From an uncultured Anaerolineaceae bacterium (lineage in GTDB: Bacteria > Chloroflexota > Anaerolineae > JAAYZQ01), in assembly GCA_964593865.1 (NCBI GenBank), contig CAZQKE010000135.1:9849-73848 (forward strand): a DNA stretch of 64,000 nucleotides. Reading direction: 5' to 3'. Below the pieces are notes generated by a model, which saw only the letters and a program-made list of their open reading frames with translations, was not told the origin of the DNA and did not search any database. The translations under genes were made by a program, and so were the position numbers. This document shows, piece after piece, positions 1 to 27,957 of this stretch. Position 1 is the stretch's first letter; the number at the start of each line of letters is the position of its first letter.

Positions 1-108
1 CTGGTCCCCCTCTACACCGGCTCCCTGGGTGGGCCGGGCAGCGGGGCTGAGACCTATGTACAACTGATCCGCTACGACGTGACGGCCATCGTAGACGCGT
101 TGCGCTGA
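1..108 (+). CDS. 3' end (partial) of a metal ABC-transporter substrate-binding protein (ZnuA/TroA-like)
   Basis: Frame 1 reads LVPLYTGSLGGPGSGAETYVQLIRYDVTAIVDALR* (TGA 106-108), resembling the LYTxSL...TY...RY C-terminus of cluster A-I binding proteins; not in ORF track because truncated. Confidence 0.6.
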   Translation: MVPLYTGSLGGPGSGAETYVQLIRYDVTAIVDALR

Positions 109-267
109 AAATCGGAACCGCCGGGCACGCCATCGCGGTTGAAACCACCTAAAGAAGTGGTAGGACTGCTTACGGATCTGGGAAAAAGGTTGGGTAGTAA
201 TTAGGAAATACCGCCTCTGCGGACCGGGTGTCTTGGGCACCGATGCTTTCGGACAAGGAGTGTCGAG

Positions 268-909
268 ATGCCTCCCTGGCTTGAACTTGTGCTCACTCCT
301 ATTTCCCTCTATGCCGTCCTGTTTTTCCTGATCTGGATTTTTGCCCGAGACAAACTGTCTCGCCGAGCGTGCGTTCTAGGATGGACGGCTGTAGCCATAG
401 GGGTCGCCGGTTTTCTATGGTCTTTGTGGTATGAGAGCCTGCTTCCGTACATCCGCGCCGGACGCTGGACGGCGGTATTGCTCACCATGCTGCAATTTTC
501 TGCGATGCTTTCAGGAGTGGCCTTGATGGTCTACGGAACCGTTCGCTTCCTCCGCTCATGGCTAAAGTTTCTGATGTGGAGGGATTCCTCACCGTTTTCG
601 GGCTTCTTGAGGTATCTCAGGGGCGATCATCCGGCCTTGGAACGTGTTCGGAGGGGGATAACATACCGACAGCGTTTTGGGATGGCTGCAAAGATCATAA
701 TCGACATGCTCACCATATCGGGCCTGGGATGGGTGCTCGTCGGACTCGGGATCACAATTGCCGGTGGTCAGGTTCTTGAACCCGATCCGAGCATTGCCCC
801 CGACGCGCAACTTGTTGTGCTTGCGCTCATCCTGATCCTGGGAGGCGGGGTACAAGAGTGGGCGGCAAGGCGGAGGGGGCAGTATACGTGGCAAGAAAAG
901 GGAAGGTAG
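268..909 (+). CDS. Hypothetical polytopic membrane protein (about 5-6 TM)
   Basis: 213 aa ORF with AAGGAG SD about 6 nt before ATG; several hydrophobic stretches; no recognisable family motif. Confidence 0.6.
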   Translation: MPPWLELVLTPISLYAVLFFLIWIFARDKLSRRACVLGWTAVAIGVAGFLWSLWYESLLPYIRAGRWTAVLLTMLQFSAMLSGVALMVYGTVRFLRSWLKFLMWRDSSPFSGFLRYLRGDHPALERVRRGITYRQRFGMAAKIIIDMLTISGLGWVLVGLGITIAGGQVLEPDPSIAPDAQLVVLALILILGGGVQEWAARRRGQYTWQEKGR

Positions 910-1034
910 ATGGCGGTGAGACGGCCCAACCATGGCTGCGACGGACGGCGGCTTTGCCGCTCCCAGACCGCGTGCTCACTTCTTGGGGGAAGATCGAAGT
1001 TCGCATCGGACCGTACCCTGCGCCGGGCAATGGC

Positions 1035-1106
1035 GCAAGTTTGGAAACTTGACCGGGCCGGGCGCATTCGTGCATTCGCGCCCTATTCGGGACGGCCCAC
1101 GGTCGG
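1035..1106 (+). repeat. Dispersed ~75 bp REP-like repeat, copy 1
   Basis: gcaagtttggaaacttg-accgggccgggcgcattcgtgcattcgcgccctattcgggacggcccacggtcgg aligns with 4313-4389 and partly with 43825-43861. Confidence 0.8.
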
Positions 1107-1194
1107 GTGACCTACAGCAGTTTAAGAGACGAACAAGAAGAGCCGGAATAGGCTCACAGCATCATTCGCCCACCCCAGAAATTCCGAACCCGAT

Positions 1195-1223
1195 TTGACA
1201 AAGCTCTGCTTTTGTGTTAGACT
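1195..1223 (+). promoter_or_regulatory. Sigma70-type promoter for the argGH leader
   Basis: TTGACA (1195-1200), 17 bp, TG-extended TAGACT (1218-1223). Confidence 0.75.
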
Positions 1224-1233
1224 ACCGTTCGCT

Positions 1234-1314
1234 ATGGACGGGCACAAAAGCAACGTGTTGACGACCACAATCGAGCGACGACCCAGCAAGGAGCCGGAGC
1301 ATCCATCTGGATAG
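1234..1314 (+). CDS. Putative argGH leader peptide (26 aa, tandem CGA-CGA Arg codons)
   Basis: ATG 1234 to TAG 1312-1314: [26 protein letters not shown]; Arg codons at 1276-1281; overlaps the antiterminator arm. No SD, near-leaderless. Confidence 0.45.
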
Positions 1315-1345
1315 GCCCCTACAGGCGTTGCACCCTGAAAATCAC

Positions 1346-1377
1346 GCCGGCCTCCAGATGGAGGTCGGCTCTTTTTT
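1346..1377 (+). terminator. Intrinsic terminator/attenuator hairpin in the argG leader
   Basis: 10 bp stem GCCGGCCTCC/GGAGGTCGGC (one G-U), AGAT loop, then TCTTTTTT; a second perfect 10 bp hairpin at 1377-1400 is followed by TTGCTTTTTT. Confidence 0.8.
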
Positions 1378-1433
1378 GCGCGATGGGTATCCATCGCGCA
1401 TTGCTTTTTTCAAACAAAAAGGGAGGGAGCGAA

Positions 1434-2690
1434 ATGAAAAAAGTCAACAAAGTGGTGCTGGCCTACTCCGGCGGGCTGGATACGTCGGTCATCCTGCCCT
1501 GGCTCCAGGAAAACTATGGCTGCGAGGTGATCACCTTTACCGCCAACCTAGGGCAAGGCGATGAAGAACTGGACGGCCTGGAAGAAAAGGCCCTCTCCTG
1601 CGGGGCCAGCAAAGCCTACATTATGGACCTGCGCGAGGAATTCCTGACCGAGTACGCCTTTCCCACCATGCAAGCCGGGGCCATCTACGAACGGCTGTAC
1701 CTGCTGGGCACATCTTTCGCCCGGCCTATCACGGCCAAGTATCTGGTCCAGGTCGCCGAGCAGGAAGGGGCCGACGCCGTGGCCCACGGTTGCACCGGCA
1801 AAGGCAACGACCAGGTGCGCTTTGAGATCTCGGTCAAGGCCCTGAACCCTACCCTGAGCGTGATCGCCCCCTGGCGCGAGTGGGACATCCGCTCCCGTGA
1901 GGATGCCCTGGCCTACGCCCAGGCCCACGACATCCCCCTTTCGGCCACCAAATCCCTCTACAGCCGCGACCGCAACATCTGGCACATGAGCCACGAAGGC
2001 CACATTCTGGAAGACCCCTGGAACGAACCGCAGGAAGAAATGTTCTACATGACCGTCGCCCCGGAGGCCGCCCCCGATGAACCCCACTACCTGACCCTGG
2101 AGTTCGAGCAGGGGATGCCGGTTGCCCTGGACGGCCAACGGCTGGGGCCGGTGGAACTGCTCACCGCCCTCAACGAAATCGGCGGCGCCCACGGCGTGGG
2201 CCGCGTCGACCTGGTGGAAAACCGGTTGGTGGGCATGAAATCGCGGGGGGTGTACGAGACCCCCGGCGGGACCATCCTCTACACCGCCCACCAGGGCCTG
2301 GAGCAGATCTGCCTGGACCGGGAGACGCTGCACTACAAAGACGTGGTGGCCCAGCGCTACGCCGAGCTGATCTACTACGGCCAGTGGTTCACGCCGCTGC
2401 GCGAGGCGCTGGCTGCCTTTGTGGCCAAGACCCAGGAACCGGTAACGGGCACGGTGCGCCTCAAACTCTACAAAGGCAACTGCTCCGTAGTCGGTCGCAA
2501 ATCGCCCTATAGCCTCTACCGCGAAGAGTTTGCCACCTTTGGTCAGGACGATGTGTACGACCAGAGCGACGCCCAGGGCTTTATCAACCTCTTTGGGCTG
2601 CCCCTCAAGGTCCGGGCGCTGGTAATGCAGGAGAACGGCGGTGCTGCCGGGTTGGAAGGGCCGGACTATGGGCAGTTCAAGCAAGATTGA
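1434..2690 (+). CDS. argG: Argininosuccinate synthase
   Basis: [44 protein letters not shown] motifs; start moved to ATG 1434 behind a GGGAGG SD. Confidence 0.98.
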
Positions 2691-2705
2691 GCGCCGGAGG
2701 GGAAC

Positions 2706-4091
2706 ATGCTGTGGGGTGGACGGTTTACGGGCGAGATGGACGCGCTGATGTGGCGGTTCAACGCCTCTCTAGAATTTGACCGACGGCTGTACCGAGCCGA
2801 CATCAAGGGCAGTATCGCCTACGCCGCGGCGTTGGCCGAAGCGGGCGTCATCGGCGAGGAGGAACGAGCAGCCCTAGTCCAAGGGTTGGAAGCGGTGCTG
2901 GCCGAGTTCGAAGAGGGGACCTTTACCTTCCGGCCGGAGGATGAGGACATCCACACCGCCGTAGAGCGGCGGCTGGGCGAGCTGATCGGGCCGGTGGCGG
3001 GCAAACTGCACACCGGTCGCTCCCGCAACGACCAGGCGGCTACCGACCTGCGCCTGTACCTGTTGGACGAGATGGAGGCTCTGGACGCGGACCTGGTCGC
3101 CCTGCAACAGGCCATTGTGGACCAGGCCGAAGCCCACCTGGACGCCATCATGCCCGGCTACACCCACCTGCAACAGGCCCAGCCGGTGCTCTTTGCCCAT
3201 TGGCTCCTCTCCTTCTTTTGGAAGTTTCAGCGGGATCGGGAGCGGCTGGCCGACGCCGCCCGACGCACGCGGGTTTGCCCCCTGGGGGCCGGGGCGCTGG
3301 CAGGCAACCCCTTTCCCCTCGACCGCCGGGCGCTGGCCGCCGCCCTGGGGTTCGAAGCCGCCGCGCCCAACAGCATGGACGCCGTCGCCGACCGGGACCA
3401 CGTCGTTGAGTTCCTGGCTTGGGCGGCCCTGGTGCAGGTCCACCTCAGCAACTTGGCCGAAGACCTCATCCTCTGGTCCAGCCATGAGTTCGCCTTTGTC
3501 CGCGTGGACGATGCTTATGCCACCGGCTCAAGCCTGATGCCCCAAAAGCGCAACCCCGACGCCCTGGAACTGATGCGCGGCAAAGGGGGACGGCTGATCG
3601 GCCACCTGACCGGCCTGCTGACCACCCTCAAAGGGCTGCCTTCTACTTATGACAAGGACCTGCAAGAGGACAAGGAGCCGTTGTTCGACGCCCTGGACAC
3701 CCTCAAGTTGGAGCTACCCATCGCCGCCGGTCTCATCCGCACTCTGCACGTGGACCGAGAGCGAATGGCCGCCGCCCTGGACGATGCCCTGCTGGCCACC
3801 GATCTGGCCGACTATTTGGTGCGCCGGGGGGTTCCCTTCCGCCAGAGCCACCACCTGGTCGGTCAGGTGGTGCGCCGAGCCGAGGCGTTGGGCCTCCCTC
3901 TGCGAGACCTGCCTTTGGATGAATACCAGGCCATCCACCCGGCCTTTGCCGAGGACCTATACGCCCTATTTGATTTCCGGCGGTCGGTTGCGGCTCGGTC
4001 GGTCGTCGGGGGCACAGCCCCTGCTGCCGTCCGGGAGCAAATTGCCCAGGCGCGGGCGCACCTGGCCCGTCCTACTGTTCCAGCAGCGTGA
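2706..4091 (+). CDS. argH: Argininosuccinate lyase
   Basis: LWGGRF N-terminus, LHTGRSRNDQ, GSSLMPQKRNPD signature. Confidence 0.98.
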   Translation: MLWGGRFTGEMDALMWRFNASLEFDRRLYRADIKGSIAYAAALAEAGVIGEEERAALVQGLEAVLAEFEEGTFTFRPEDEDIHTAVERRLGELIGPVAGKLHTGRSRNDQAATDLRLYLLDEMEALDADLVALQQAIVDQAEAHLDAIMPGYTHLQQAQPVLFAHWLLSFFWKFQRDRERLADAARRTRVCPLGAGALAGNPFPLDRRALAAALGFEAAAPNSMDAVADRDHVVEFLAWAALVQVHLSNLAEDLILWSSHEFAFVRVDDAYATGSSLMPQKRNPDALELMRGKGGRLIGHLTGLLTTLKGLPSTYDKDLQEDKEPLFDALDTLKLELPIAAGLIRTLHVDRERMAAALDDALLATDLADYLVRRGVPFRQSHHLVGQVVRRAEALGLPLRDLPLDEYQAIHPAFAEDLYALFDFRRSVAARSVVGGTAPAAVREQIAQARAHLARPTVPAA

Positions 4092-4221
4092 GAAAGCCGC
4101 AGGGAGGGACACAGGCCGTAGCTTGGCACCGGGCGACGGCGGCTACTACTGCAGTAGCGACTCAAGTCGCTCCTTGCGGGCCTGCGGCCAGGCGTCCGCC
4201 TGCGCGGACGCGGCCTGCTTT

Positions 4222-4389
4222 GTAGCGCAAGCCTCCGGCTTGCGCAAAAGACCCTCCCGCAGGTTGACAACCCGCGGGAGGGTAGAGGCGGCTTCAACCG
4301 CGGTTTTCTTTGCAAGTTGGAAACTTGCGCCACCGGGTCGGGCGCATTCGCGCATTCGTGCCCCATTCGCGGACGGCCCAGGCGGTCGG
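4222..4389 (+). repeat. Composite REP/REPIN-like palindrome cluster, including copy 2 of the ~75 bp repeat (4313-4389)
   Basis: GTAG+CGCAAGCC-TCC-GGCTTGCG (4222-4244); central hairpin ACCCTCCCGC...GCGGGAGGGT (4251-4283); inverted GTGG+CGCAAGTT-TCC-AACTTGC on minus strand (4334-4313). Confidence 0.75.
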
Positions 4390-4418
4390 CCAACGGCGCA
4401 CAGATCAAAGGAGGAAAA

Positions 4419-5306
4419 ATGCGAAAGCTTCTATTAGGTGCTCACGAATCCATTGCCGGGGGAGTGGAAAAGGCCCTGGCCCGCGGGAAGCAAGTCGGCT
4501 GCGACACGATCCAGATCTTTGTCAAATCACCCAACCGCTGGGTTTCCAAGCCGCTGGCGGAAAGGAACATCCTGGCCTTCAAAGAAGCGGTGGCAGAGAC
4601 CGGCATCTGGCCGGTATTTGCCCATGCCCTCTATCTCATCAACCTGGCGACACCCGATGATACCCTATGGCACAAATCCCTGGATGCCCTGACCGACGAC
4701 CTGGAACGATGCGAGATGCTAGGGCTGCCGGGGTTGGTCATCCATCCCGGCTCGCACCGCGGGGCAGGGGAAGCGATGGGGTTGGCCCGCATCTCTGCCG
4801 CGTTGGACAAAGTGCACGCCCGCCTTCCCGGTTACAACGTCCAGATCTGGTTGGAGATCACCGCCGGGCAAGGCGACCATTTAGGCTACACCTTTGAGCA
4901 GTTACGCGCCATGATCGACGGCGTGCGGGAACCGGAACGACTGGGGGTCTGTTTTGACACGGCCCACGCTTTTGCCGCAGGGTATGAACTGCGCGATAGG
5001 GAAGGGTATGAGGCCACTTGGGCCGCCTTCGACAAGGTGCTGGGGTTGGACCGGCTGCGGGCCATCCATCTCAACGACTCAAAAAAAGGTTTGGGCAGCC
5101 GCATAGACCGCCACGAACACATCGGCAAGGGGATGCTGGGGCTGGAGCCGTTCCGCTTCCTGGTCAACGACCCACGCTTCCGCGGCCTGCCCATGACGCT
5201 GGAAACGGACAAGGGGCCGGACCTGGCCGAGGACAAGGAAAATTTAGCCGTCCTCCGCTCCCTGGTCAAGAACGTCGGCCTCTCGCCGGAAACCCATCCT
5301 GCCTAG
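4419..5306 (+). CDS. nfo: Endonuclease IV (deoxyribonuclease IV, AP endonuclease family 2)
   Basis: LGAHESIAGG, HALYLINL, IHPGSH, LEITAGQG, CFDTAHAFAAGY, HLNDSK, DRHEHIG; start ATG 4419 after AAGGAGG. Confidence 0.96.
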   Translation: MRKLLLGAHESIAGGVEKALARGKQVGCDTIQIFVKSPNRWVSKPLAERNILAFKEAVAETGIWPVFAHALYLINLATPDDTLWHKSLDALTDDLERCEMLGLPGLVIHPGSHRGAGEAMGLARISAALDKVHARLPGYNVQIWLEITAGQGDHLGYTFEQLRAMIDGVREPERLGVCFDTAHAFAAGYELRDREGYEATWAAFDKVLGLDRLRAIHLNDSKKGLGSRIDRHEHIGKGMLGLEPFRFLVNDPRFRGLPMTLETDKGPDLAEDKENLAVLRSLVKNVGLSPETHPA

Positions 5307-7859
5307 CTAATCTTCCGAGCCGCTGCTTTCAAAAGCGGGCAAAGTGATGGCCTCCTCGCCGATGAGGACCTCCCAGCGGGGCAGCCAGGCCAGGGCGAAT
5401 GTCTCTATGTGCACGTCGGCGCGGCGAGGGCGGACCTCAATCTCCTCCACGTCGTCGATCCATTCGGCCCACCGATCGGCCAGTTCCGCCAACGCCTGCT
5501 CCTTTTCCTCCTCCACCTCTTTGATCTCGGCCTTTAGGTCGGCAATGGTCTCTTCCGACTCCTTGATGTCGGCCAGGGCCTGGCGGGTCAGGCGCCGTTT
5601 GGTGCTGACGCGGGAAAGACGGCTGGACAGGCTTTTCCGGGAAAAGATGCTCAGCACCGACTCAACACCGGTCAGCAGTTCCTCTTGCTTGCGGGCTTCA
5701 TACTCCACCTTGTCCTGCTCCAGCTCCCGCTCCTCTCGGTCAAGGCGGTCTTGCAAACGATCCAATTTCCGATCATATTTTTCTTTGATCTTCTTGGCAT
5801 CGGCCTTGTGGGCCTTTTCCGCCGCCTTGCGACAACGCCGCCGAAACGCCTCCGCCGTTTCACCAAAGCGGGAATAGAGCTTCAGGTGGGGGTTGTAGAG
5901 CAACGTCATCACCGAGTTGTAGTAGAGATAGTCTTCAAACTCTTTTTCCAGGGAGCGCAGGCTGCGGGCGGAGCTTAGCTCCGAGGGCAGGTCGGCAAAA
6001 TAGGCTTCCTTTTCCGCCCGGCGAAGCAGGTCGCGGGGTTTGAGTTGCACCTCCGCCGCCGACCAGTCCAGGTCGCCGATCTCCTCCCCTTCCACCGGCA
6101 GGAGATAGGCCACGTCGCGGCGGTGGGTTTGGCGGCTTTTGGTATGGGGGAAGCGCAACTCGGCCAGTCCCACCAGGGCCGGGCTGTAGACCAGGTAGCC
6201 GGGCGTTTCCTTCCGCGAGCGCAGCGACCAACCCCGCCGGCGGGCCATATGGCTCAACGCCTCCTGCAAGGGAATGCGGACCGGCAAAAAGACCTGCTTG
6301 ACCGCCGAAGGCAGTTGGGGGGGCGATTTGCGGTAGGGGACCTCCGGCTCCGGTGGGGGCGTCGGTTTGGGGGCGACGGCGGCCACCGTAGCGGCGGCGG
6401 ATTCTGCCTCCCCGGCCTCTGTCGTGGCAGGGGCAGGCGGCATCGGCTGCTGTTTCATCAACTTTTGCACCTGGGGCCGGGTCAGGGGGCCGCGCAGGTA
6501 GCTCATGGCCCAGCGGGTGTGAAAGACCACCGGCTCCTTTTCGTGGACGTTGTGCAGCAGGAACACCCGCGATTGCACCGCCGAGATCATCTTGTCCAGC
6601 GTGCGGCGGCTCAGCCCCCCTTCGCCCACCTGCACCCCCTCCAGACCGTCCAGCAGGCGTTGTTTGTCCCGGTCGGCCTGCATCCGCCCGATAAACCAGG
6701 TCCCGGCATTGGAGAGGGCCTTGTAGTCCAGGTCCACCGGGTTTTGGGTGGCCAGGATCAGGCCCAGGCCAAAGGCCCGCGCCTGTTTGAGCAAGGTCAA
6801 CAGCGGCTTTTTGGTGGGCGGGTTGGCGGGGTGAGGCGGCAGGTAGCCGAATACCTCGTCCATGTAGAGCAGCGCCCGCAGGCTGGTCGTGCCGCTCTGG
6901 GTCCGCATCCAGCTGACCACTTGCTCCAGCAGCAGGGTGACAAAGAACTGTTTTTCCGCTTCCGAAAGGTGGGCGATGTAGAGGATGCTGACCTGGGGCT
7001 TGCCCGATGGGCCGTGGAGCAACCCATCAATGTCCAGGGGTTGGCCCTGGATCCAATCGGCAAAAGAGGGCGAGGCCATCAGGCCGTTGAGCAGCATGGC
7101 CAGCTCCATACGGTCCTTTTCCGGGAAGAAGGTATCCACGGGGAAAACCCCCATCTGGCTGAAAGGGGGCTTTTGGACGCGCAAGATCAGTTGGGCCAGG
7201 TCCAGGTCCTCCCCTTGCCGCCAGGCGTTTTCAAAGATGTTGGACAGGAGGATATGTTCGCGGCTGCGCACCGGATCGGCCTCAACGCCGATGAGGGCCA
7301 ACAAGGCGGAGACGACGCTTTCAATTTTGTCGCGGATCAGTTCGCCATCGGTCTCCCAGGAGAGGGGTGGGGCCTTGAGGGTGTGCAGGATACTGAGCTG
7401 CCACCCTGCGCTGCTGCCCGGCGTATAGATGGCAAAGTCGGCGGCTTCTTTGAGGCGACGGATGCGCTCCGGCCCTTGTCCGGTGCGGGCCAGGCCGTTG
7501 CGCCACAGTTCGGCCATCTTGGCCGCATAGGCATCCAGGTCCATTTCCTTGCGGCGGGCGTCATCGGGATTGACCCAGGGGGCGAAATCGGCGGGGCGTA
7601 GGTCGGGAAAGGTGAGGAGCAGGTTGGTCATATCGCCTTTGGGGTCAATCACCAAAGAAGGGACGCCATCCAGGGCCGCTTCCTCCAAGAGGATGATGCC
7701 CAGGCCGGTCTTGCCGCTGCCGGTCATCCCCAAGCAGACGGCATGGGTGGTCAGGTCGCGGGCGTCGTAATAGATCGGTTCATCAAGGATTTCCCCGGCG
7801 GCCAGGTCATACCGCTGGCCCAGGTAGAAGCTGGCAGATCGCTCCCGGATGGGGTCCAT
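5307..7859 (-). CDS. HerA/FtsK-family (DUF87-like) ATPase with C-terminal coiled coil
   Basis: Walker A GMTGSGKT, Walker B LYMDE, KQARAFGLGLILATQNP motif; charged heptad-rich C-terminus. Confidence 0.85.
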   Translation of the reverse strand: MDPIRERSASFYLGQRYDLAAGEILDEPIYYDARDLTTHAVCLGMTGSGKTGLGIILLEEAALDGVPSLVIDPKGDMTNLLLTFPDLRPADFAPWVNPDDARRKEMDLDAYAAKMAELWRNGLARTGQGPERIRRLKEAADFAIYTPGSSAGWQLSILHTLKAPPLSWETDGELIRDKIESVVSALLALIGVEADPVRSREHILLSNIFENAWRQGEDLDLAQLILRVQKPPFSQMGVFPVDTFFPEKDRMELAMLLNGLMASPSFADWIQGQPLDIDGLLHGPSGKPQVSILYIAHLSEAEKQFFVTLLLEQVVSWMRTQSGTTSLRALLYMDEVFGYLPPHPANPPTKKPLLTLLKQARAFGLGLILATQNPVDLDYKALSNAGTWFIGRMQADRDKQRLLDGLEGVQVGEGGLSRRTLDKMISAVQSRVFLLHNVHEKEPVVFHTRWAMSYLRGPLTRPQVQKLMKQQPMPPAPATTEAGEAESAAATVAAVAPKPTPPPEPEVPYRKSPPQLPSAVKQVFLPVRIPLQEALSHMARRRGWSLRSRKETPGYLVYSPALVGLAELRFPHTKSRQTHRRDVAYLLPVEGEEIGDLDWSAAEVQLKPRDLLRRAEKEAYFADLPSELSSARSLRSLEKEFEDYLYYNSVMTLLYNPHLKLYSRFGETAEAFRRRCRKAAEKAHKADAKKIKEKYDRKLDRLQDRLDREERELEQDKVEYEARKQEELLTGVESVLSIFSRKSLSSRLSRVSTKRRLTRQALADIKESEETIADLKAEIKEVEEEKEQALAELADRWAEWIDDVEEIEVRPRRADVHIETFALAWLPRWEVLIGEEAITLPAFESSGSED

Positions 7860-7877
7860 GGTCTTTCCTCCCCTCTA

Positions 7878-7911
7878 AGCAAAAGGGGTGACACCGGGCG
7901 GCGTCACCCCT
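7878..7911 (-). terminator. Terminator-like hairpin in the 5' leader of the HerA-like gene
   Basis: Minus strand AGGGGTGAC-N10-GTCACCCCT then TTTGCTT, about 20 nt upstream of the start codon. Confidence 0.5.
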
Positions 7912-8012
7912 ATCTGTCGGTTCAGGACGACACTACGACCGGTTGCAAAGCCCCCCTACTTTGACAACCACGCCGTCCTGCCCGTACAGACCACAGGAAT
8001 ATCACGCCGATT

Positions 8013-8040
8013 ATTATACTCAATTCGCTCCGTCTGTCAA
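8013..8040 (-). promoter_or_regulatory. Sigma70 promoter for the HerA-like gene
   Basis: Minus strand TTGACA (8040-8035), 16 bp, TATAAT (8018-8013). Confidence 0.75.
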
Positions 8041-8082
8041 ACCGGGAGAGGCAAAATGTCAGAGTCAGACCGCGTTACAGCC

Positions 8083-8111
8083 TTGACAGACCGCCCCCTC
8101 CTGAGTAAACT
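8083..8111 (+). promoter_or_regulatory. Sigma70 promoter for suhB
   Basis: TTGACA (8083-8088), 17 bp, TAAACT (8106-8111). Confidence 0.65.
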
Positions 8112-8144
8112 GACACAAGTCCATGCATGAACCGAGGGAACGCG

Positions 8145-9014
8145 ATGACCGATACGTTGCATTTCGCCCTGGAAACGGCCCGCCGGGCCGGTGCATTGCT
8201 GCGGGATTTTGGGCAGCGCCAAGCGGTAGGTCACAAGAGTTCGGAGATTGACATTGTGACCGCGGCCGATTTGGCTTCGGAACGCCTGATCGTGGAGGCC
8301 ATCCGCAACCGCTTTCCCGATCACCACATCCTTTCCGAAGAGGGGTTGGGGGATCTGCACGATGTGGCCGCCGAAATCCCCCACCTGTGGTTGGTGGATC
8401 CTTTGGACGGGACGGTCAATTACGCCCATGGCTTTCCCGTGTGGGGGGTAACGCTGGCCCTGGCCGAACGAGGCCGCGTGGTGATGGGCGTGACCTACGA
8501 TCCGCTGCGGGAGCAGATCTTTTGGGCAGAACAAGGGCAAGGGGCTTGGTGCAACGGCGAAAGGCTCCATGTTTCAAAGGTAGAGAGGCTTCAGGATGCC
8601 CTGCTGGCCACCGGCTTTGCCTACAAGCGGGCCAGTTTGGGCGCAGCCTCCACGGAGGAAGAGCCGGGCAACAACCTGGCCGAGTTCGGCGTGGTCATGC
8701 CCCGCGTGCAGGGCATTCGCCGCGCCGGGGCAGCAGCCCTGGATCTGGCCTATCTCGCCGCCGGCTGGTTGGATGCCTATTGGGAGATGCACCTACAACC
8801 GTGGGACTGGGCTGCCGGGACGCTGCTCATCCGGGAAGCAGGGGGCACGGTCTCCGATATGCGCGGCGAACCCTGGTCACCGGGAACCAATAGCCTGGTA
8901 GCCAGCAACGGCTTGCTCCACAACGCCCTGCTCTCCCTCCTGCACCAAGCGGACGGCAACCATGCCCAACCCCATGTAGAGCCAGAAGACGGCGACCGAG
9001 TGGGGGAAATTTAG
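8145..9014 (+). CDS. suhB: Inositol monophosphatase family protein
   Basis: DIVTAAD, WLVDPLDGTVNYAHG, RRAGAAALDLAY, WDWAAG motifs; start likely ATG 8145 (SD GAGGG). Confidence 0.93.
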   Translation: MTDTLHFALETARRAGALLRDFGQRQAVGHKSSEIDIVTAADLASERLIVEAIRNRFPDHHILSEEGLGDLHDVAAEIPHLWLVDPLDGTVNYAHGFPVWGVTLALAERGRVVMGVTYDPLREQIFWAEQGQGAWCNGERLHVSKVERLQDALLATGFAYKRASLGAASTEEEPGNNLAEFGVVMPRVQGIRRAGAAALDLAYLAAGWLDAYWEMHLQPWDWAAGTLLIREAGGTVSDMRGEPWSPGTNSLVASNGLLHNALLSLLHQADGNHAQPHVEPEDGDRVGEI

Positions 9015-13978: not shown

Positions 13979-16153
13979 TCAATCTGCAACCGGCAGGGTG
14001 AAGCTAAAAACGCTTCCCTTGCCCGGTTCGCTCTCCACCCAGATTTTGCCCCCGTGGAGCTCCACCAGGGACTTGGCGATGGATAGACTCAACCCCCGTC
14101 CACTGTGGTGCTGGACCACGGGGTGCTCCGCCCGGAAGAAGCGATCAAAGACATGGGGCAAGTCCTCCGGGGCAATGCCGATACCGGTATCGGCGACCGA
14201 GACGGTAATCCATTTGTTCCGATCATCTCGGCGGCGGTGGCGGCTGCCGAGCCTGGCCTCGACGGTCACACGGCCTTTAGGCAAGGTATAAAGGTAAGCG
14301 TTCATCAACAGGCTGTTCAGCACCTGGCTCAGTCGTGCCCGGTCGGCATAGACCAACGGCAACCGCGAGGATACCTTGACGTTCAGGCGCATCCCTTTGT
14401 CTTTGAACCGTTCTTTGTAGGAAGCGGTCACCTGGGTCACGACCTCTTTGAGGGAGATCGGCTCCAGCTCAAGCTGGGTCTCGCCCGTTTCCAAACGGGC
14501 GATGTCCAGCATATCCTCCATCAACTCAATGAGATAGTCGGTGCTCTCCTCAATTTTGGCGACGCTATCCAAGGCGCCGGGTTCCAACGGCCCCATCGCC
14601 CCGGAAAGGAGCATACTGCTATACCCTTTGATGGCCGTCAGAGGCGAGCGCAACTCTTGGGCCACGGATTGAACAAAGCGGCTTTGGGCCAGGTGCATCT
14701 CCTGGGCTTCCCGGTAGAGGCGGGCGTTCTCCAAAGCGATGGCCAAGGGCCGGGCTACGTTGTTCAACCGTTCCACATCCTCCTGGGTGAAAGGGCCGTC
14801 CAGCTTATTCAGCAGCTCCATCACGCCGGTACAGCGATCATGGACCATAAGGGGCACGCACAGGATGGAGCGGGTGACAAAGCCGGTCTGGGCATCTACT
14901 TCGTTGAAGAATTGGTCGTCTTGGTAGGCATTGTTGACCACCGCCGGTTGATGGGAGATGGCAACCTGACCGGCGATCCCTTGCCCCAGTTTGAGCCGCA
15001 CCCCCCGCAGCGACTCCTCTTCCCCCATCCAGCTGGTGACGAATTCCAACTCCTGGGCTTCTTCATCCAACAGCATCAGCGAACCGGCTTCAACGCGGAA
15101 CATTTCGCCGATCTTGGCCGTCACCGTGTCAAAGATTTCGTTCTGGTCCAGGGTAGAAGTCACGGTCTGGGTGATTTCGTACAGATCGGTCACCTCTTTG
15201 ATCCGCTGGGCCAAAGCCTCATCGGTGGCGCGATAGGCGCGGGCGTTTTCAATGGCAATGGCAGCGTAATCGGCCAATGCCTGGATCATGGCCTCATCGT
15301 TGGTCCCAAAGGGACGACCGGGCGTCCGGTTTGCTACGGCCAGGATACCGATGGACTGGCCTTTATACAGCAAGGGAACGGCCAGCAAGGCCGAGACGGC
15401 ATATCCCCCTCGGACGAGAATCGGGCGCGCGCCCCGTTCCGCCGCCAAGCGGAGCGGCTTGTTGCCGCGTAAGGCTTGGCCGACGATGCTCTCCCCGGCA
15501 TCGAGCACCTGCACCAACGACCGGCGTTCCCCCAACCCCTGGGCGGTCTGCAGGTGCAGGGTATCGCCCTGGCCCTCTTCCCGCAACCACAACATTCCCT
15601 CTTCGGCGCGGGTGATGAACAAAGCACCTTCTACTACGCGGTCAAGGACCTTGTCCAGGTGCAACTGGGCGGTCACCGATTTGCTGATGCCGAGGAGGAC
15701 GTTTAGTTCCCGGAGGCGTTGTTCCAGGTCCCGACGGGTCTGTTCCAATTGGCGGGTCAGCCGCTCTTTGTCCCGTTCCAGGCGCACCTGGGCCAGTACC
15801 CGGTCAATGGTCGCGGTGGCAACCTCGGTGTCAAAGGGTTTGATCAAATAGTCCCTGGCCCCCAGGCGGAAGGCTTCGGCGGCGATGGATTCGGAGCCGT
15901 GGGCGGTCATCACGATCACCGGCACATCTTGGCCTCGCTCGTGCAGGTCCCGCAGGATGTCCAGCCCATCCATATCGGGCAGCTGCAGGTCCAAGAGGAT
16001 CAAGTCCGGTTCTCGTTCGGCGATGAGGCGCATGGCCTGACGCCCGTAAGCGGTGTCCAGGGTCCGATAGCCGTACAGGGGCAACACCTCACGGCTCAGG
16101 AATTCGCGGAGCTGGTCGCTATCTTCAATTATCAGTATCAGCTCATTGCTCAC
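13979..16153 (-). CDS. REC-GAF-GAF-HisKA-HATPase hybrid kinase-like protein with H-box His replaced by Gln
   Basis: N-terminal REC (EDS, LLDLQLP, KPF); H-box reads VAQELRSP; DTGIGI, FDRFFR, GRGLSL ATP-box motifs; start GTG 16153. Confidence 0.88.
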
Positions 16154-18695
16154 GGGACATCTCCGCAACGGGCAGGGTGAAGCCAAAGGTGCTTCCCCGG
16201 CCTACCTGACTTTCTACCCACAGATCGCCGCCATGCAGTTCTACCAAAGACTTGGTAATCGCCAATCCCAGGCCAGTCCCCGGCTGTTCGCGTACCACGG
16301 GGTCCTCCGCTCGGTAGAAACGATCAAAGATGTGCTCCAAATCGTCGGGGTGAATGCCGATGCCGGTATCGCAGACGGTGATCTCCACCATGCCGTTTCT
16401 GCGCTCCGCCGCCACGGTGATCCGGCCCCCGGCGGGGGTGTAACGACAGGCATTGGTCAGCAGGTTGGTCAGAATCTGCTCCACCCGTTGGCGGTCGCCC
16501 AAGACGGTGACATCTTGGAGCGCGATCTTGACGCGCAGTCCCTTTTCCTCAATCATGGAGGTCAGGGAAGCAACAACCCCCGACACCGTATCCTGCAAGG
16601 GGAGGGGACGGGGCCGGAGGGTCAGCCGCCCGCTCTCAATACGTGCTATATCGGAGAGATCGGCCACCAGGCGCATCAGCCGCTGGGTGTTGCGGTGGAC
16701 GATTTGGAGGTAGCGTTGCCGTTGCTCTTGAGGGACATCTTTCCCCTCTCCCAACAACAATTCTGTGTACCCCCCGATGGCGGTCATCGGTGTACTCAGT
16801 TCATGGTACACGGCAGAGATGAAATCCCGCAGTTCCTTGGTGCGCTCCCGAACCTTCTTCTCCAATTCCCGGCTAAAGGCATGGACCTGTTCGTACAAAC
16901 GGGCGTTGGTGATGGCAATGGCAGCCTGGTTTGCCAGGGTGCGCAAGAGGTCCAGCTCCCGCCGCCGGTACAGATCACCGGAGAGTTTCCCCCCCACCAG
17001 GTAAAGGCCCACCAAGTTCCCACCGCTCAACAGGGGCAGAACGGCCTGGATGCCCGCCTCCTGCCAGGACGGTGGGACCTCTACCCCTTTCTCATCGGCA
17101 CGAGGCAGGTACTCACCCTCCGAGCCATCCAACAAGAGGGTTCTTTCCGAATCAAGGAGGGTGGCAACAAGGGGGCTGTCGACCGGAATGGAAAGGGAGG
17201 AAGCGGTTACCATCCCGTTACCCTCTTGATCCTCCGAGACGGTCAGGGGCACAAGATTCGCTTCCTCTTCATCGGGGATCAGCAACCAAGCACCTTTGAT
17301 GAGCAGTTGCTCCGGCACTTCACGGGTCAGCAAACGGGCAATGTCCGAGAAACGAATGCTGGTGCTGAGCCGATGGCTCCAACGGATCAAGGCGTCCTGA
17401 AAGTCCAGTTGCTGCCGAAAGAAGAGGCGGTCCACGGCGGTCTGCAAATAGGCACGCAGCGGATTGACCAGCAGGCCGATCAAAAGGGCCGAGATAAAAA
17501 CGACAAGGGTGTAGTTCCCGCTCCCGGCGGTGATGCCCAAAGCATTCGAGAGGAACGTGATAAGCAGCAGGTAGAGGGCGGCCAGCACGGCCGTCAGCAC
17601 ACCGTAAACCATGCTGCGGTTCACCACCAGGTCCACGTCCAAGAGACGGTAGCGCAACACGGCAAAGGCGAAGGAAAGGGGCAAGGTCAGTGTCCCCAAC
17701 AACAACAGGTCCGAAAGGGTGGGCATGTAGAGGTGCAACAAGGTCAGGACGATGTCCACCACGCTGGAGGCGATGGCAACGCCCAAGCCCCACATCACCC
17801 ACTGGAGCTGCCGCCGCACTACCGAATCCGCGGTGGTAGCATACACATACCCCATGCTCCCCAGGACAAAGGCAGCCGCCAAGACCAGGTATGCGAAAGC
17901 CACGTTGGAGAAGGTCTCAAAACGGGGCGCAAACCAGATGCCGGTCCCGGCCAACAACGACCGGGTATACGCCTGGATCGTCAGGGCCATCAGCACCAAG
18001 CTGGGGATGTAGAGCAGGAGCCACCACCAGGTTCCGGGCCGCAGCCGTTCCTTGGGGAAGAGCAGGGCAAAGTGGATGACCAAAGCAGGAGCCAGGGTCA
18101 AAGCCACGATCTGAACGTAGACCAGAAGGGGGGCATTTTTATCCAACAAAGCAAAATAGAGGCCCAAAGCCAGGGAGGCGATAAAGAAAAGACGGGCAGG
18201 CCGATCCCCAAACCGCTGCAACGCTACAACCATGCCCAGCAGGATAAAGACGAAGGCGATCAGGTTGCGGATGACAAAGCGCAGATCCAGACTCTTGGTG
18301 GTGATGAAAACGGGGATCTCTACAATCCGATCGCCCCGTTGCACCGTGACGACGGCCCAGCTATCCGCTTCCAGCCGGTTTTGCACCGACCGGTACTCCA
18401 TGAGGGTGGAGACGGGCCGACCGTCAACCTCAAGGATACGATCCCCCACCTGAAAACCGATTTCCGCACCGCCCGCCCGGAGGGCAGTCACAACCAGGTC
18501 CTCGTTCACCATGACGACGGCCCGGCCCAGTTCGGACTTTGTGCCTTCCGGTGGCTGGATCGAGTGCCAATGGACATCAAAGTAAATGCCGACCGCCTGG
18601 ATGCCGAAGGCCAAGACCGTCAACACGATGACAAAGGCCCGGTACGGCCACGCCAAATCGGTTGTCCGTCTCACCTTCACCACAGACGCACTCAT
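16143..18695 (-). CDS. Membrane histidine kinase with PDZ domain, multi-TM region and GAF
   Basis: N-terminal TM, PDZ-like [13 protein letters not shown], about 7-8 TM, GAF (ITNARLY), YHELSTP H-box, [21 protein letters not shown]. Confidence 0.9.
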
Positions 18696-21600
18696 TCAGA
18701 AGGCCCTTCCGCAATCGCCTTTTTGATCTCGGCCACCAGTTCTTGGACGGAGAGCGGCTTGACCAGGTACTGGCTGGCTCCCATTCCCAGCACCCGTACC
18801 TTATCCCGCTCCTTATCCACCGGACTGGCGGTGATGACGATGATGGGGATTGCCCGCGTATCTTCGTTCTCCTTGAGCCGCCGGATTACTTCATAGCCGT
18901 CCATACCCGGCATCTTGAGATCAAGCAGGATCAGGTCCGGCGGCGATTCCCGGACCATGTCCAATGCTTCCTGTCCGCCGGCAGCCGTCTGCACCCGGTA
19001 GCCTTGATGGGAAAGGGCTTGTTCCAAAAAGCCCCGGATGTCCGGATCGTCATCTACGACCAGCAAGGTCCGTTGCTCATCCTGCTCGCCGGGGGCCAGG
19101 GCCGTGCGGATGCTCTGCAGAAGCTTCTCTTCATCAAAGGGCTTGACCACGTAATCCACCGCCCCCAAAGCATAGCCCCTTTCCGAATCTGTCAACACAG
19201 AGACGATGATCACGGGGATCGGCGCAGTCACGGGGCTATCTTTGAGCCGCTCCAAGACGACAAAGCCGTCCAGGTCGGGGAGCATGATGTCCAGGGTGAT
19301 GAGGTGGGGCTGCTCCTCCCGCGCCAACCAGAGGGCGTCCTCACCGCTACCGGCGAGCAAGACCTGATACCCTTCTGCTTCCAACTGACGACGGAGCAAC
19401 AGGGCCAGGTCGTGATCGTCCTCCACGACCAGGATCTTTTGGCGACGGCCCACGACGAGGGATTCTTCGGTCAGCAGGTCCGGCTCTATTTCGGGAACCT
19501 CGGTCGTTACCAGGGGCAGGGTGAAGCTGAAGGTTGAGCCAACGCCCAGCTCGCTCTCCACCCAGATCTGGCCGCCCAGCATTTCGACGAACATCTTGAC
19601 GATGGACAGACCCAAGCCCGTGCCCCCCGCTTCCTCAACGACCGGATCGTCCACCCGATAGAAGCGGTCAAAGATGCGATCCAAGTCGTCTTCGCCGATG
19701 CCGATGCCGGTATCGCTCACGTTCACCTGCAAGAAGCCATCGTTGGGCTGGACGGTAATCGTCACTTTGCCGCCCGGCAAGGTGTACTGCCACGCATTGC
19801 TCACCAGGTTGGTGAGGATCTGGGTGACACGGGCAGCATCACCCCGCACTTGGGGCAGCTCATCGGGAGGCTCCCAGATGAGTTCCAGGTTCTTTTCCCG
19901 ATACTGTTCCCGGAAGGAAAGGACAACGTTGTTGATGATCTCTACCAGGTCCAGGGCCTCGATGGTCAAGCGGATGCGGCCTGTTTCAATGCGGGAAATG
20001 TCCAGAATGTCGTTGACCAGGGCCGTCAAGCGGTCGGCGTTGGTTTTGATGATCTGCAAAAAGTTGCGCTGGGTATCGGTCAGGCCACCGGCCATGCCCA
20101 GGAAGAGGAGGTCGGTATAGCCCTTGATGGAGGTCATGGGCGTCCGCAGTTCGTGGGAGACGGTGGAGATGAATTCGTTTTTCAGCCGTTCTACTTCGGC
20201 CTCACGGCTGATGTCGCGCAGGGCGGCAACCAAGCCCGGCACATCACCGACGGTTGTGATCAGCGGCGCGATGTTGACGGCCAGCACCCGTTTTTCCGCT
20301 TCCAAACGGACGGTGACGGGTTGCAAGGAGGTCGGTTCGCGCTGTGCCCGCTCCAGGTAACGCCGTAGTTCGGAATAGAGACCTCTGGCCAGTTCTCGCT
20401 GGGCCGTCGTTTCGCCCAAGCCCAACATGTGACGGAAATGTTCCCCTTCAATGGCAATTGCCGAAACACCCAGCAGCTCCTCGGCAGCAGGGTTGATGAG
20501 CAAGACCTTGCCGTTATGGTCCAAAACCAACACGCCGTCGGCAATGGATTCCAGGATGGCCCGGTTCTTGGCCGCTTCCTCCTGTTGGGATTGCAGCATG
20601 GAGCCGAGTTGATCGGCCTGTTCGGTGATGTAGGCGTAGAGATCCGAGTTGTTGACGGCGACGGCGATCTGGGCGGCGGCGGCGATGACCAGTTGTAGGT
20701 GATCTTCGGTAAAGTGGCCGACTTCGGGATGCCCCAGCGTCAGTACGCCCATGATGTCGCCCCCACCCAGGGAAAGGGGAGCCGCCACCACCGAGCGGAT
20801 AGGCAACGGACGATCCTCCACTTGGAGCCAGCGGGGGTCTTTGGTGACGTCGGGGATGAGGACCGGTTTCCGGTTCTCCAGCACCCAACCGGCCAGCCCC
20901 ACACCCCGTTTGAAGAAGGTGCGGGTTCCCCGGCGGGCTTGTTCCTCTTCCGGCCCCAAGACGGCCCGCAGGGTAAGGTAGCCGGTTTCTTGGTCCAGCA
21001 ACATGATGGTTCCGTGCCGGACATCCATGGCATCGGCAAAGAGGTGCAGGGCGTGGTCCAGCACCCGTTCCAGGTCCAGGGTGGCCCCCAGCTCGCTGGT
21101 GATACGGTAGAGGGTTTCGGCCCGGTCGCGCTCCAGGGTCAGCTGCTGAAGGGCTTCTTCCAGATCGCGGGTGCGTTCCTCAACACGGGCCTCCAGTTCG
21201 TTGCTAAAGTCCACCAACTGTTGGTAAAGCTGGGCGTTGCGCATGGCCACCGCCACCTGGGCCGCAATGGTCGTCAAGATGGACAGGTCCTCCGGGCTGT
21301 AGAGGTTCTCCCGGTCGTAGCTTTGGACGGCCATGACACCCAAGACCTGATCGGCGGCGATGATGGGAACGCCCATCCACGATTTGGCCTGCTCGCCCAC
21401 CCGCTCAATGCCGTGCTCTCGGTGGAATTCTGCGCTTTCTTCGGTAGTGCGGAAGAGGAGCGGACGACGGTTGCGAATGATGTAGCCGGTCAGCCCCTGG
21501 TAAATGCTGTAACGGGCCTGTGGTTCCGGCTCGCCGTGTTCGCGGGAAAAGGCCAACGTCCATTCTTCATCGCCCTCCTCATAGGTGGCGATGAAAAAGT

Positions 21601-26911: not shown

Positions 26912-26959
26912 GAACACTACCCCCGGTTTTCCCAAAGGTCAACCGGTGGAGAGGGTTGT

Positions 26960-27856: not shown

Positions 27857-27957
27857 CCTGTTTACCTCCCTCACGTAGCGCCAGAACCTTTGCGCTATCT
27901 ATCTCTGCGGTTCATCCCCCGAACCGCCAAGATGCCAAATAGAATCTCCCTCGGCGG

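Follow-up and report, generated by a model that had tools for sequence, protein, structure and literature searches.

A probable ribosome-dependent, arginine-sensing transcription attenuator upstream of argGH in Anaerolineae

Classical leader-peptide attenuators have been described for the trp, his, leu, thr, ilv and pheA genes of Proteobacteria and for the trp, leu, ilv and cys genes of Actinobacteria (PMC1262725, PMC10272879), and the comparison of Actinobacteria found no RNA element upstream of arginine operons, with T-boxes accounting for RNA-level control by arginine elsewhere (PMC1262725). The subject of the present analysis is a stretch of 64,000 nucleotides from an uncultured Anaerolineaceae bacterium (Chloroflexota; contig CAZQKE010000135.1, positions 9,849 to 73,848), hereinafter the window, in which the genes for argininosuccinate synthase and argininosuccinate lyase, argG and argH, are preceded by a leader that combines a promoter, a short upstream open reading frame (uORF) with two consecutive arginine codons, and a terminator. 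Comparison with related leaders and modelling of RNA folding lead us to propose that the segment 1195-1433 of the window is, in all likelihood, a ribosome-dependent leader-peptide transcription attenuator of argGH that senses charged tRNA-Arg. Arginine biosynthesis is a textbook case of control by a repressor (ArgR/AhrC). Leader-peptide attenuation is known for Trp, His, Leu, Thr, Ile/Val, Phe and Cys, and arginine biosynthesis would be, within the literature searched, a new specificity: the search, for which subscription journals were out of reach, found no leader-peptide attenuator of arginine biosynthetic genes. The element would also extend classical attenuation to Chloroflexota, a large and mostly uncultured phylum.

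So how does this locus compare with the systems that have been described? With the classical attenuators it shares a promoter, a putative uORF in which cognate codons stand in tandem, an antiterminator that is mutually exclusive with the terminator and, as far as its relatives are concerned, a 1:2 helix, together with the position of the terminator directly before biosynthetic genes, as well as the use of rare cognate codons, such as the CUA codons of the Salmonella leu leader. It is unlike them in the amino acid, the genes and the phylum (arginine, argGH and Chloroflexota), in its nested antiterminator, in an alternative hairpin that shares the 3' strand of the terminator beside the U-tract, and in the presence of a second conserved terminator-like hairpin, and in sequence it resembles no Rfam leader. 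In function, the nearest precedent is orf34 upstream of Salmonella speF, in which two consecutive Arg codons sense arginine via ribosome pausing and switch mRNA structures (PMC6386406). Tandem Arg codons, a uORF and alternative structures are common to both, but orf34 controls an ornithine decarboxylase, that is, polyamine synthesis, shows no homology to the argG leader, and acts through Rho termination, unfolding of the ribosome-binding site and RNase G decay, without an intrinsic terminator, such that high arginine represses speF via mRNA decay. In mycobacteria, leaderless polycysteine uORFs are reported to attenuate the cysteine biosynthetic operon (bioRxiv 10.1101/834739); they resemble the uORF of the window and the leaderless uORFs of other argG leaders in starting near the transcription start, and differ in sensing cysteine and in belonging to Actinobacteria. 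A T-box with an Arg specifier likewise senses the charging of tRNA-Arg and controls a terminator, but the argG leader, which measures ~150 nt from the transcription start to the terminator, lacks a Stem I, a specifier loop and the T-box sequence, and its sensing would proceed via the translating ribosome. ArgR/AhrC serves the same goal, repression of arg genes by arginine, but does so as a DNA-binding protein at operators. In the fungal arginine attenuator peptide of arg-2/CPA1, which is likewise an arginine-responsive uORF upstream of an arginine-pathway gene, it is the peptide sequence that, when free arginine is high, stalls the ribosome and prevents scanning; this system is eukaryotic, whereas the argG leader peptide is not conserved beyond the Arg codons and the positions constrained at the RNA level.

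The features of the locus, some of them taken from the minimum-free-energy (MFE) fold of the RNA, are the following.
1195-1223, plus strand: sigma-70-type promoter with TTGACA (-35, 1195-1200), a 17-nt spacer and TAGACT (-10, 1218-1223)
1234-1314, plus strand: leader peptide uORF from ATG 1234 to TAG 1312-1314, 26 codons and the stop
1276-1281, plus strand: tandem Arg codons CGA CGA, the proposed stall site at low Arg-tRNA
1282-1290, plus strand: spacer of 9 nt that separates the second CGA from segment A and corresponds to the 5' strand of the 1:2 helix seen in relatives
1291-1311, plus strand: segment A, the uORF tail and 5' arm of the decoy hairpin (from the sequence and the MFE fold)
1314-1328, plus strand: segment B, the post-stop segment (from the MFE fold)
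1346-1377, plus strand: terminator T1, GCCGGCCTCC-AGAT-GGAGGTCGGC at 1346-1369, then the U-tract TCTTTTTT at 1370-1377
1377-1410, plus strand: second terminator-like hairpin T2, TGCGCGATGG-GTAT-CCATCGCGCA at 1377-1400, then the interrupted U-tract TTGCTTTTTT
1421-1429, plus strand: Shine-Dalgarno (SD) sequence of argG, GGGAGGGAG, read from the sequence
1434-2690, plus strand: argG, argininosuccinate synthase, 418 aa (Pfam PF00764, PF20979), the gene proposed to be regulated
2706-4091, plus strand: argH, argininosuccinate lyase, 461 aa (Pfam PF00206, PF14698)

The promoter, the 26-codon uORF with its CGA-CGA pair, T1, T2 and two complementarities between the uORF and T1 (10/10 and 6/6 nucleotides) had been read from the window alone in an earlier note, and all of them were found where that note had placed them. 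The -10 element is TG-extended, the promoter matches the consensus at 10 of 12 positions in a motif scan, and it is the sole sigma-70-like site across 800-1600, where 0.3 such sites are expected; transcription is predicted to start at ~1230-1231. The stem of T1 comprises 10 bp (1346-1355 with 1360-1369, one pair being G-U) and is closed by the loop AGAT. Segment A pairs with T1 in two places: GAGCCG(G) at 1291-1297 pairs with 1365-1371, the hexamer GAGCCG at 1291-1296 being the reverse complement of 1366-1371 (6/6), and TCCATCTGGA at 1302-1311 is the exact reverse complement of 1353-1362, that is, of the loop and the upper 3' arm of T1 (10/10). Segment B, through GGCC at 1314-1317 and GGCGT at 1324-1328, pairs with ACGCCGGCC at 1344-1352, which spans the 5' flank and the base of the 5' arm of T1. 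These pairings belong to a long alternative hairpin (1288-1297/1365-1374, 1302-1311/1353-1362 and 1314-1328/1344-1352), which is the MFE fold of 1229-1412 at -73.9 kcal/mol (z = -4.2; none of 200 dinucleotide shuffles folds as well). The gap of 33 nt between T2 and argG contains no promoter, and therefore transcription of argGH must cross both T1 and T2; argH starts 15 nt 3' of argG, and the two genes are presumably co-transcribed. A search of the 64-kb window with nhmmer gave a single match to the leader, at argG, and no further copies, for example before other arg genes.

The earlier note had likewise seen neither a T-box nor an ARG box, and both negatives hold near the promoter. A scan of 850-1600 against Rfam 15 at E<=10 recovered no T-box, riboswitch or known leader family; the sub-threshold matches to small RNAs (ncS54 at 25.8 bits with a gathering score of 43, and mmgR at 23.4 bits with a gathering score of 41) are driven by the terminator hairpins, and six related loci yielded no Rfam 15 match, T-boxes included, at the gathering score. 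The ARG box (TGAAT-N4-ATTCA, up to 3 mismatches) has no match in 1-9000 under the E. coli-type consensus, from which the Chloroflexota motif may differ, and over the whole window the same search gives 5 matches vs 4.7 expected.

Further evidence comes from relatives of this leader. When the ArgG protein was scanned against one genome per GTDB species, 80 loci were obtained, mostly in metagenome-assembled genomes (MAGs) of Anaerolineae/Chloroflexota, with 62-84% identity, which places the window in an Anaerolineae genome and agrees with the choice of Chloroflexota for comparison in the earlier note. A mechanical scan of their upstream regions revealed a common architecture in ~30 loci: a promoter, a uORF of 20-26 codons with RR or RRR, a tail ...EPxxPSG-stop, T1 and T2. 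An alignment of 31 leader sequences (A1), picked with an 'RR' filter, served as the basis of a profile hidden Markov model, with which nhmmer detects the leader in 36 of the 80 GTDB argG loci, from Anaerolineae MAGs, at E<1e-15, with weaker matches in a further 3. To these are added metagenome contigs fetched by a DNA pattern containing CGACGA, 25 of the 119 matches to which contain the leader according to nhmmer; the other 94 are chance matches in unrelated DNA and were dropped at this step. The downstream open reading frame is ArgG by blastp in 20 of the 25 metagenome members; in one of them (L126) the downstream read is argG out of frame, and the remaining contigs end early or are unresolved. 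Wherever the downstream gene is readable, the leader lies directly upstream of argG and in the same orientation, and, by this comparison, the family looks specific to argG. The promoter pattern TTGACA-17-TAnnnT and an in-frame start codon are kept in nearly all members. With ~60 independent contigs showing this architecture and compensatory changes within it, a chance origin can be dismissed, and the covariance-supported motif is ready for use in the annotation of MAGs. The DNA sequencing runs that hold the locus derive from hydrothermal-vent and sediment metagenomes.

Both of the competing structures show covariation. In A1, 92% of the T1 cells are paired, with double changes in 7 of 13 pairs, and 0 of 500 shuffles match this. 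The uORF tail pairs with the 3' arm of T1 in 95-97% of cells and with the loop and upper arm of T1 in 86-90%, with six covarying pairs in the latter helix; between the post-stop segment and the base of the T1 5' arm, ~70% of cells are paired, in a variable register, the relatives' version being GGCTCT:AGAGCC. Overall, the alternative pairing reaches 87-88% vs 35-45% in slid controls, with 12-14 covarying pairs. A further indication comes from positions at which three strands change in concert: columns 33/100/119, which belong to the uORF, the 5' arm and the 3' arm of T1, respectively, read AAT in 19 members and GGC in 4, and columns 39/105/115 read CCG in 8 members and TTA in 7. Such three-way covariation on a shared 3' strand is, for the predicted pairings, the signature of two mutually exclusive helices. 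The antiterminator is nested, in the sense that the pairing between the uORF tail and the loop and 3' arm of T1 encloses the pairing between the post-stop segment and the base of the 5' arm.

Unconstrained folds of the relatives contain, in addition, a 1:2 helix in which the post-Arg spacer and GAGCC pair with GGCUC and the post-stop segment, capped by a small CCAGAC/GUCUGG hairpin. In the 1:2 region, RNAalifold found no more than the 4 apical base pairs and missed the lower stem because the register shifts between sequences, and a test of own against cross duplexes was used instead: the duplex of a spacer with its own post-stop segment has a mean energy of -10.75 vs -7.45 kcal/mol for non-cognate combinations (permutation p<1e-4). 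Taken together, these helices give the family what is predicted to be the classical layout of 1:2, 2:3 and 3:4 pairings.

RR or RRR is aligned at the regulatory position across the family, and the Arg codons of the leaders are CGA in 62 of 88 cases (70%) vs 5.4% in 12 genes of the window and 2.2% in the argG genes of the family; this bias is not an artefact of selection because A1 was chosen for 'RR' and not for codon identity. In bacteria, CGA is decoded by tRNA-Arg(ICG) through an inefficient I:A wobble, and the family would offer a natural example of sensing by such rare codons, as it does of leaderless regulatory uORFs. Of 31 members, 24 have 9 nt between the last Arg codon and the conserved GAGCC, six have 6 or 12 nt, and a single member has 3 nt; the 3' edge of the footprint of a bacterial ribosome lies ~12 nt past the first base of the A site, that is, 9 nt past the codon. 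A separate observation on these codons is that the regulatory triplets are often CGA-CGA-CCN, encoding Arg-Arg-Pro (1276-1284 in the window, columns 13-21 of A1). Both CGA-CGA and CGA-CCG have been reported to rank with the most inhibitory codon pairs of yeast, and the Arg-Arg-Pro context may add to slow decoding.

In 30 GTDB loci, the homologous uORFs agree in frame, tail and position of the stop codon, and the TAG stop occupies a fixed column of A1. The N-terminal part varies in sequence and length, yet the frame stays open and the indels preserve it. In the tail, third codon positions are invariant or covary with T1, whereas the two codons that fall in the internal loop change non-synonymously. 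Because the synonymous sites of the tail are constrained by pairing and the internal-loop codons are free, what selection preserves is the RNA together with the Arg codons, and not the peptide. Main-family relatives have 5' untranslated regions of 21-34 nt with purine-rich, AGGA/GAGG-like SD motifs, and the uORFs are presumably translated, with stalling at the Arg codons and read-through of T1 to follow when charged tRNA-Arg is scarce.

The effect of a ribosome on the choice between the two structures was modelled with partition functions for the RNA up to the end of T1 in the 31 members, under the assumption of equilibrium. With no ribosome, the median probability of T1, or P(T1), is 0.99 and exceeds 0.5 in 28 of 31 members, the value for the window being 0.02. 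When the RNA is masked to 9 nt past the last Arg codon, as by a stalled ribosome, the median drops to 0.10, with values >0.5 in 10 of 31 members and 0.00 in the window. With the ribosome at the stop codon, the median returns to 0.99, P(T1) exceeds 0.5 in all 31 members, and the window reaches 0.89. These calculations agree with the claim of the earlier note that a stall frees the antiterminator arm and that a ribosome at the stop masks it. That note had named the lack of conservation of the Arg-codon uORF and the pairings in relatives as grounds for rejection, and these elements turned out to be conserved and covarying in the argG leaders of Anaerolineae. Its comparison with the geometry of the trp and his attenuators stands as far as the codons, the terminator, the exclusive antiterminator and the 9-nt spacing are concerned, and is weakened for the window by the degenerate 1:2 helix and the free-state P(T1) of 0.02 found there. 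Furthermore, its account of the pairing between the uORF tail and T1 was right, while the 1:2 helix seen in relatives had been missed; a further addition is that segment B pairs with the base of T1's 5' arm.

These findings can be accommodated in the following scenario. Transcription would begin at ~1230, and the short uORF would be translated at once. Under arginine-replete conditions, the ribosome would pass CGA-CGA and reach the TAG at 1312, where its footprint would mask 1302-1311 and the post-stop segment; the T1 hairpin (1346-1369) would then form, and RNA polymerase would terminate in the U-tract at 1370-1377. When arginine is limiting, the ribosome would wait at the CGA codons with its leading edge ~9 nt beyond them, leaving the tail and the post-stop segment free; the tail would pair with the loop and 3' arm of T1 and the post-stop segment with the base of its 5' arm, T1 would be blocked, and the polymerase would continue into argGH. 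The leader would thus respond to arginine through the ribosome. In most relatives, the RNA free of ribosomes would form the 1:2 helix between the spacer and the post-stop segment and hence T1 by default, as in trp; in the window copy, most of this helix has been lost. The long alternative hairpin presumably does not itself terminate, though its basal helix abuts the U-tract, and two ways of avoiding such termination can be envisaged. The edge of the stalled ribosome would lie 0-3 nt from the 5' strand of the basal helix while the 3' strand is in the exit channel of the polymerase, and the resulting clash between ribosome and polymerase would keep the bottom pairs of the hairpin open, with the upper pairings sufficing to exclude T1. 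Alternatively, kinetic trapping might be involved, the helix between the post-stop segment and the 5' arm forming before the 3' arm is made.

Leaders that are unrelated in sequence to this family also precede argG and carry Arg codons. A second type found in Anaerolineales (L051-L055, L057, L061, L062, L066, L067 and L078) is unrelated to the first, carries a conserved R-x-R-R block and mostly has a leaderless start codon, 6-10 nt past the -10 element, and the only conserved blocks in the unrelated argG leaders are TTGAC-17-TAnnnT, R-x-R-R or RR(R) in CGT/CGA, and a terminator. Outside Anaerolineae, uORFs with RR or RRR, such as MTSNCHSAFVRRRKAG and MIDQLRRSINRRRASL, precede argG in Marinimicrobia (L071, L072) and Bipolaricaulota (L025, L033, L039, L040). 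Masked folding predicts a stall-dependent loss of the terminator in L053, L054, L061 and L072 as well. The presence of RR uORFs in other phyla suggests convergence or horizontal transfer, and at least three unrelated leaders (from Anaerolineae, from Marinimicrobia and from Bipolaricaulota) retain no more than the Arg-codon uORF and the terminator, which points to repeated, convergent use of this device before argG. In outgroup loci from Deltaproteobacteria, Myxococcota and unclassified lineages (L068, L069, L075, L076, L080), argR is located immediately upstream of argG and there is no leader, with argR confirmed by Pfam (PF01316, PF02863) for L069 and L076. One can go further and surmise that the ribosome 9 nt upstream acts as a steric wedge against RNA polymerase, keeping open the base of the decoy hairpin; that, without a ribosome, either the decoy hairpin or T1 terminates; that T2 takes a further input; and that ArgR control of argGH has been replaced across Anaerolineae and, convergently, in other uncultured phyla. 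This extended scenario is speculative, and we consider it doubtful as a whole. In yet other loci (L049, L056, L058, L059, L063, L065), argG directly follows a gene with a C-terminal FPEKVW-x-DC...C...CDE motif, possibly an argA-related acetyltransferase, with no leader in between.

Several observations weigh against the interpretation of the leader as an arginine attenuator, in general or in the window. At equilibrium, the switch is absent in 10 of the 31 members, and extension of the stall mask by 3 nt is sufficient for T1 to be favoured in 27 of 31; because this small extension restores T1, the switch needs the whole uORF tail, including the GAGCCAG pairing beside the U-tract, and, given this result, in the model it depends on the exact geometry of the footprint or on folding kinetics. 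The alternative hairpin ends in a 7-10 bp helix abutting the U-tract, which is itself terminator-like on paper. T2 directly follows T1 and must be read through for any expression of argGH, and no structure competing with T2, nor a regulatory pairing partner for it, was found in the leader. The family sequences are phylogenetically related, A1 was filtered for 'RR', and the metagenome pattern contained CGACGA; single or non-adjacent Arg codons occur in 4 of ~37 complete members (L003, L009, L020, L037). In the window, the 1:2 helix is degenerate (-3.5 kcal/mol, rank 29 of 31), because of which the ribosome-free RNA is predicted to adopt the alternative hairpin and not T1. Furthermore, as the earlier note had rightly cautioned, the uORF of the window lacks an SD sequence, its ATG at 1234 lying only 10 nt past the -10 hexamer, and the choice of start codon is ambiguous, given the in-frame alternatives GTG 1255 and TTG 1258; this uORF is, by its predicted promoter, leaderless or nearly so, unless GTG 1255 or TTG 1258 serves as the start. 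In 12 of 16 other argG leaders, the start codon is found 6-10 nt after the -10 element, a leaderless spacing, and such starts would account for the missing SD sequence. Finally, among the sequencing runs searched, there were no public RNA runs with the locus.

Could a different explanation fit these data better? Some of the observations above would follow if the family is a true Arg attenuator of which the window holds a degenerate or rewired copy, weakly translated and either constitutive or altered in its default state. The window is the sole member of the main family in which the first in-frame ATG is 10 nt after the -10 element and no later ATG preceded by an SD sequence is available (L018 also has an ATG at 10 nt, but there a later in-frame ATG follows a purine-rich stretch); its 1:2 helix is the weakest but two, its T1 is shorter and includes a G-U pair, its nhmmer score of 95.2 bits is below that of 23 of the 36 GTDB members, and its ribosome-free P(T1) is low. 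However, CGA-CGA, the 9-nt spacing, the 10/10 and 6/6 pairings, T1, T2 and the promoter are all intact in the window, starts 6-10 nt after the -10 element are normal in other types of argG leaders, and masking of the stop codon restores T1, such that decay of this copy appears rather unlikely. A more radical departure would be to regard the uORF as encoding an arrest peptide, which would respond, inside the ribosomal tunnel, to free arginine or a different metabolite through its EPxxPSG-stop motif, with the ribosome arrested at the stop masking the antiterminator and thus allowing T1 to form. The tail E-P-x-x-P-S-G-stop seems to be conserved in ~30 members, Pro-rich tails and PPG motifs are generally prone to stalling, and a ribosome held at the stop does give P(T1) ~0.99 in the folding model. 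Yet the conservation of the tail tracks the RNA pairing, the third positions being fixed or covarying with T1 (columns 30, 33/119, 42/112, 45 and 48/105), while the internal-loop codons vary freely (D/G/V/N/A and H/Y/C/S/L); in the other types of argG leader, nothing but the Arg codons persists and the tails are unrelated; and the strong CGA bias fits the sensing of hungry codons. On balance, we find an arrest peptide highly improbable.

It is equally hard to do without translation altogether, that is, to treat the uORF as incidental and to let an RNA-binding protein or a small ligand set the choice between T1 and the alternative hairpin, or act on T2. Such a switch would be in line with the conservation of the T2 stem, which has no competitor and is confined to the leader, like a protein-binding site, and with the lack of an SD sequence in the window uORF, but it leaves unexplained the conserved in-frame start, Arg codons and stop notwithstanding a variable N-terminus, the frame-keeping indels and the bias toward rare Arg codons. 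Moreover, the 9-nt spacing equals the length of the ribosome footprint, unrelated leaders share nothing but the RR uORF, and there is no match to a riboswitch or T-box of Rfam; a translation-independent switch, accordingly, strikes us as very unlikely. Even less credence can be given to the notion that the unit from the promoter to T1/T2 is an independent gene for a small RNA or a small protein that merely happens to be upstream of argG. Weak sub-threshold Rfam similarities to small RNAs exist, originating from the terminator hairpins, and attenuator RNAs released by terminators are reported to be able to act in trans in other bacteria (PMC6614838). However, in each readable member the unit immediately precedes argG and is oriented like it, argGH must be transcribed through the unit given that no promoter separates T2 from argG, and the small peptide is not conserved as a protein. 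Thus, the interpretation as a ribosome-dependent attenuator sensing charged tRNA-Arg remains our preferred one.

The second hairpin, T2, deserves separate consideration. It is kept in most members, with a loop of variable length and with compensatory changes in L019, L045 and L147, and its stem is unusually conserved in sequence (GCGCGATGG/CCATCGCGC). Its role could be that of a fail-safe terminator by which basal expression is set; alternatively, T2 might stabilise the 5' end of the processed RNA or bind a second regulator or a protein. Two other candidate roles were rejected: T2 is not a dispersed REP-like repeat, as it occurs once per locus and in the leader only, and its ATG does not begin a second regulatory open reading frame or an N-terminal extension of argG, the frames and stops being inconsistent across members.

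Individual loci present peculiarities of their own. In L001, two tandem units, each with an Arg-uORF and a terminator, precede one argG (603-745 and 797-940); unit 1 is a full family member with T1 and T2, and unit 2 is diverged, with MNDKQKTQVGPQPARRREPVPPLR and its own SD sequence and terminator, a layout that recalls tandem riboswitches or T-boxes. In L015, two tandem group II introns without open reading frames (1645-2632; matches to Rfam RF02001, RF01998 and RF00029) directly follow T1, at the usual place of T2 and before argG, which fits the homing of such introns to sites after intrinsic terminators. A weak family match in L035 (2574-2697) is located ~300 nt upstream of argG, and the short open reading frame between the two resembles, by eye, a HicB-type antitoxin.

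In the window itself, a GC hairpin, GAGCCGGAATAGGCTC, is found at 1140-1155, ~40 nt 5' of the -35 element, with a terminator-like score on the minus strand only, and its upstream neighbour is a membrane-protein gene at 268-909. Downstream, convergent with the unit of argGH and an nfo-like gene, an 850-aa protein with an N-terminal HerA/DUF87 ATPase domain and a long, charged, coiled-coil-like C-terminus is encoded at 5307-7859 on the minus strand. Farther along, at 18692-26935 on the minus strand, there is a gene for a 2747-aa hybrid sensor histidine kinase with ~10 GAF domains, PAS, HisKA/HATPase and two receiver domains, flanked on the same strand by GAF histidine kinases (13979-16186 and 16143-18695) and a receiver-GGDEF protein (26960-27874).

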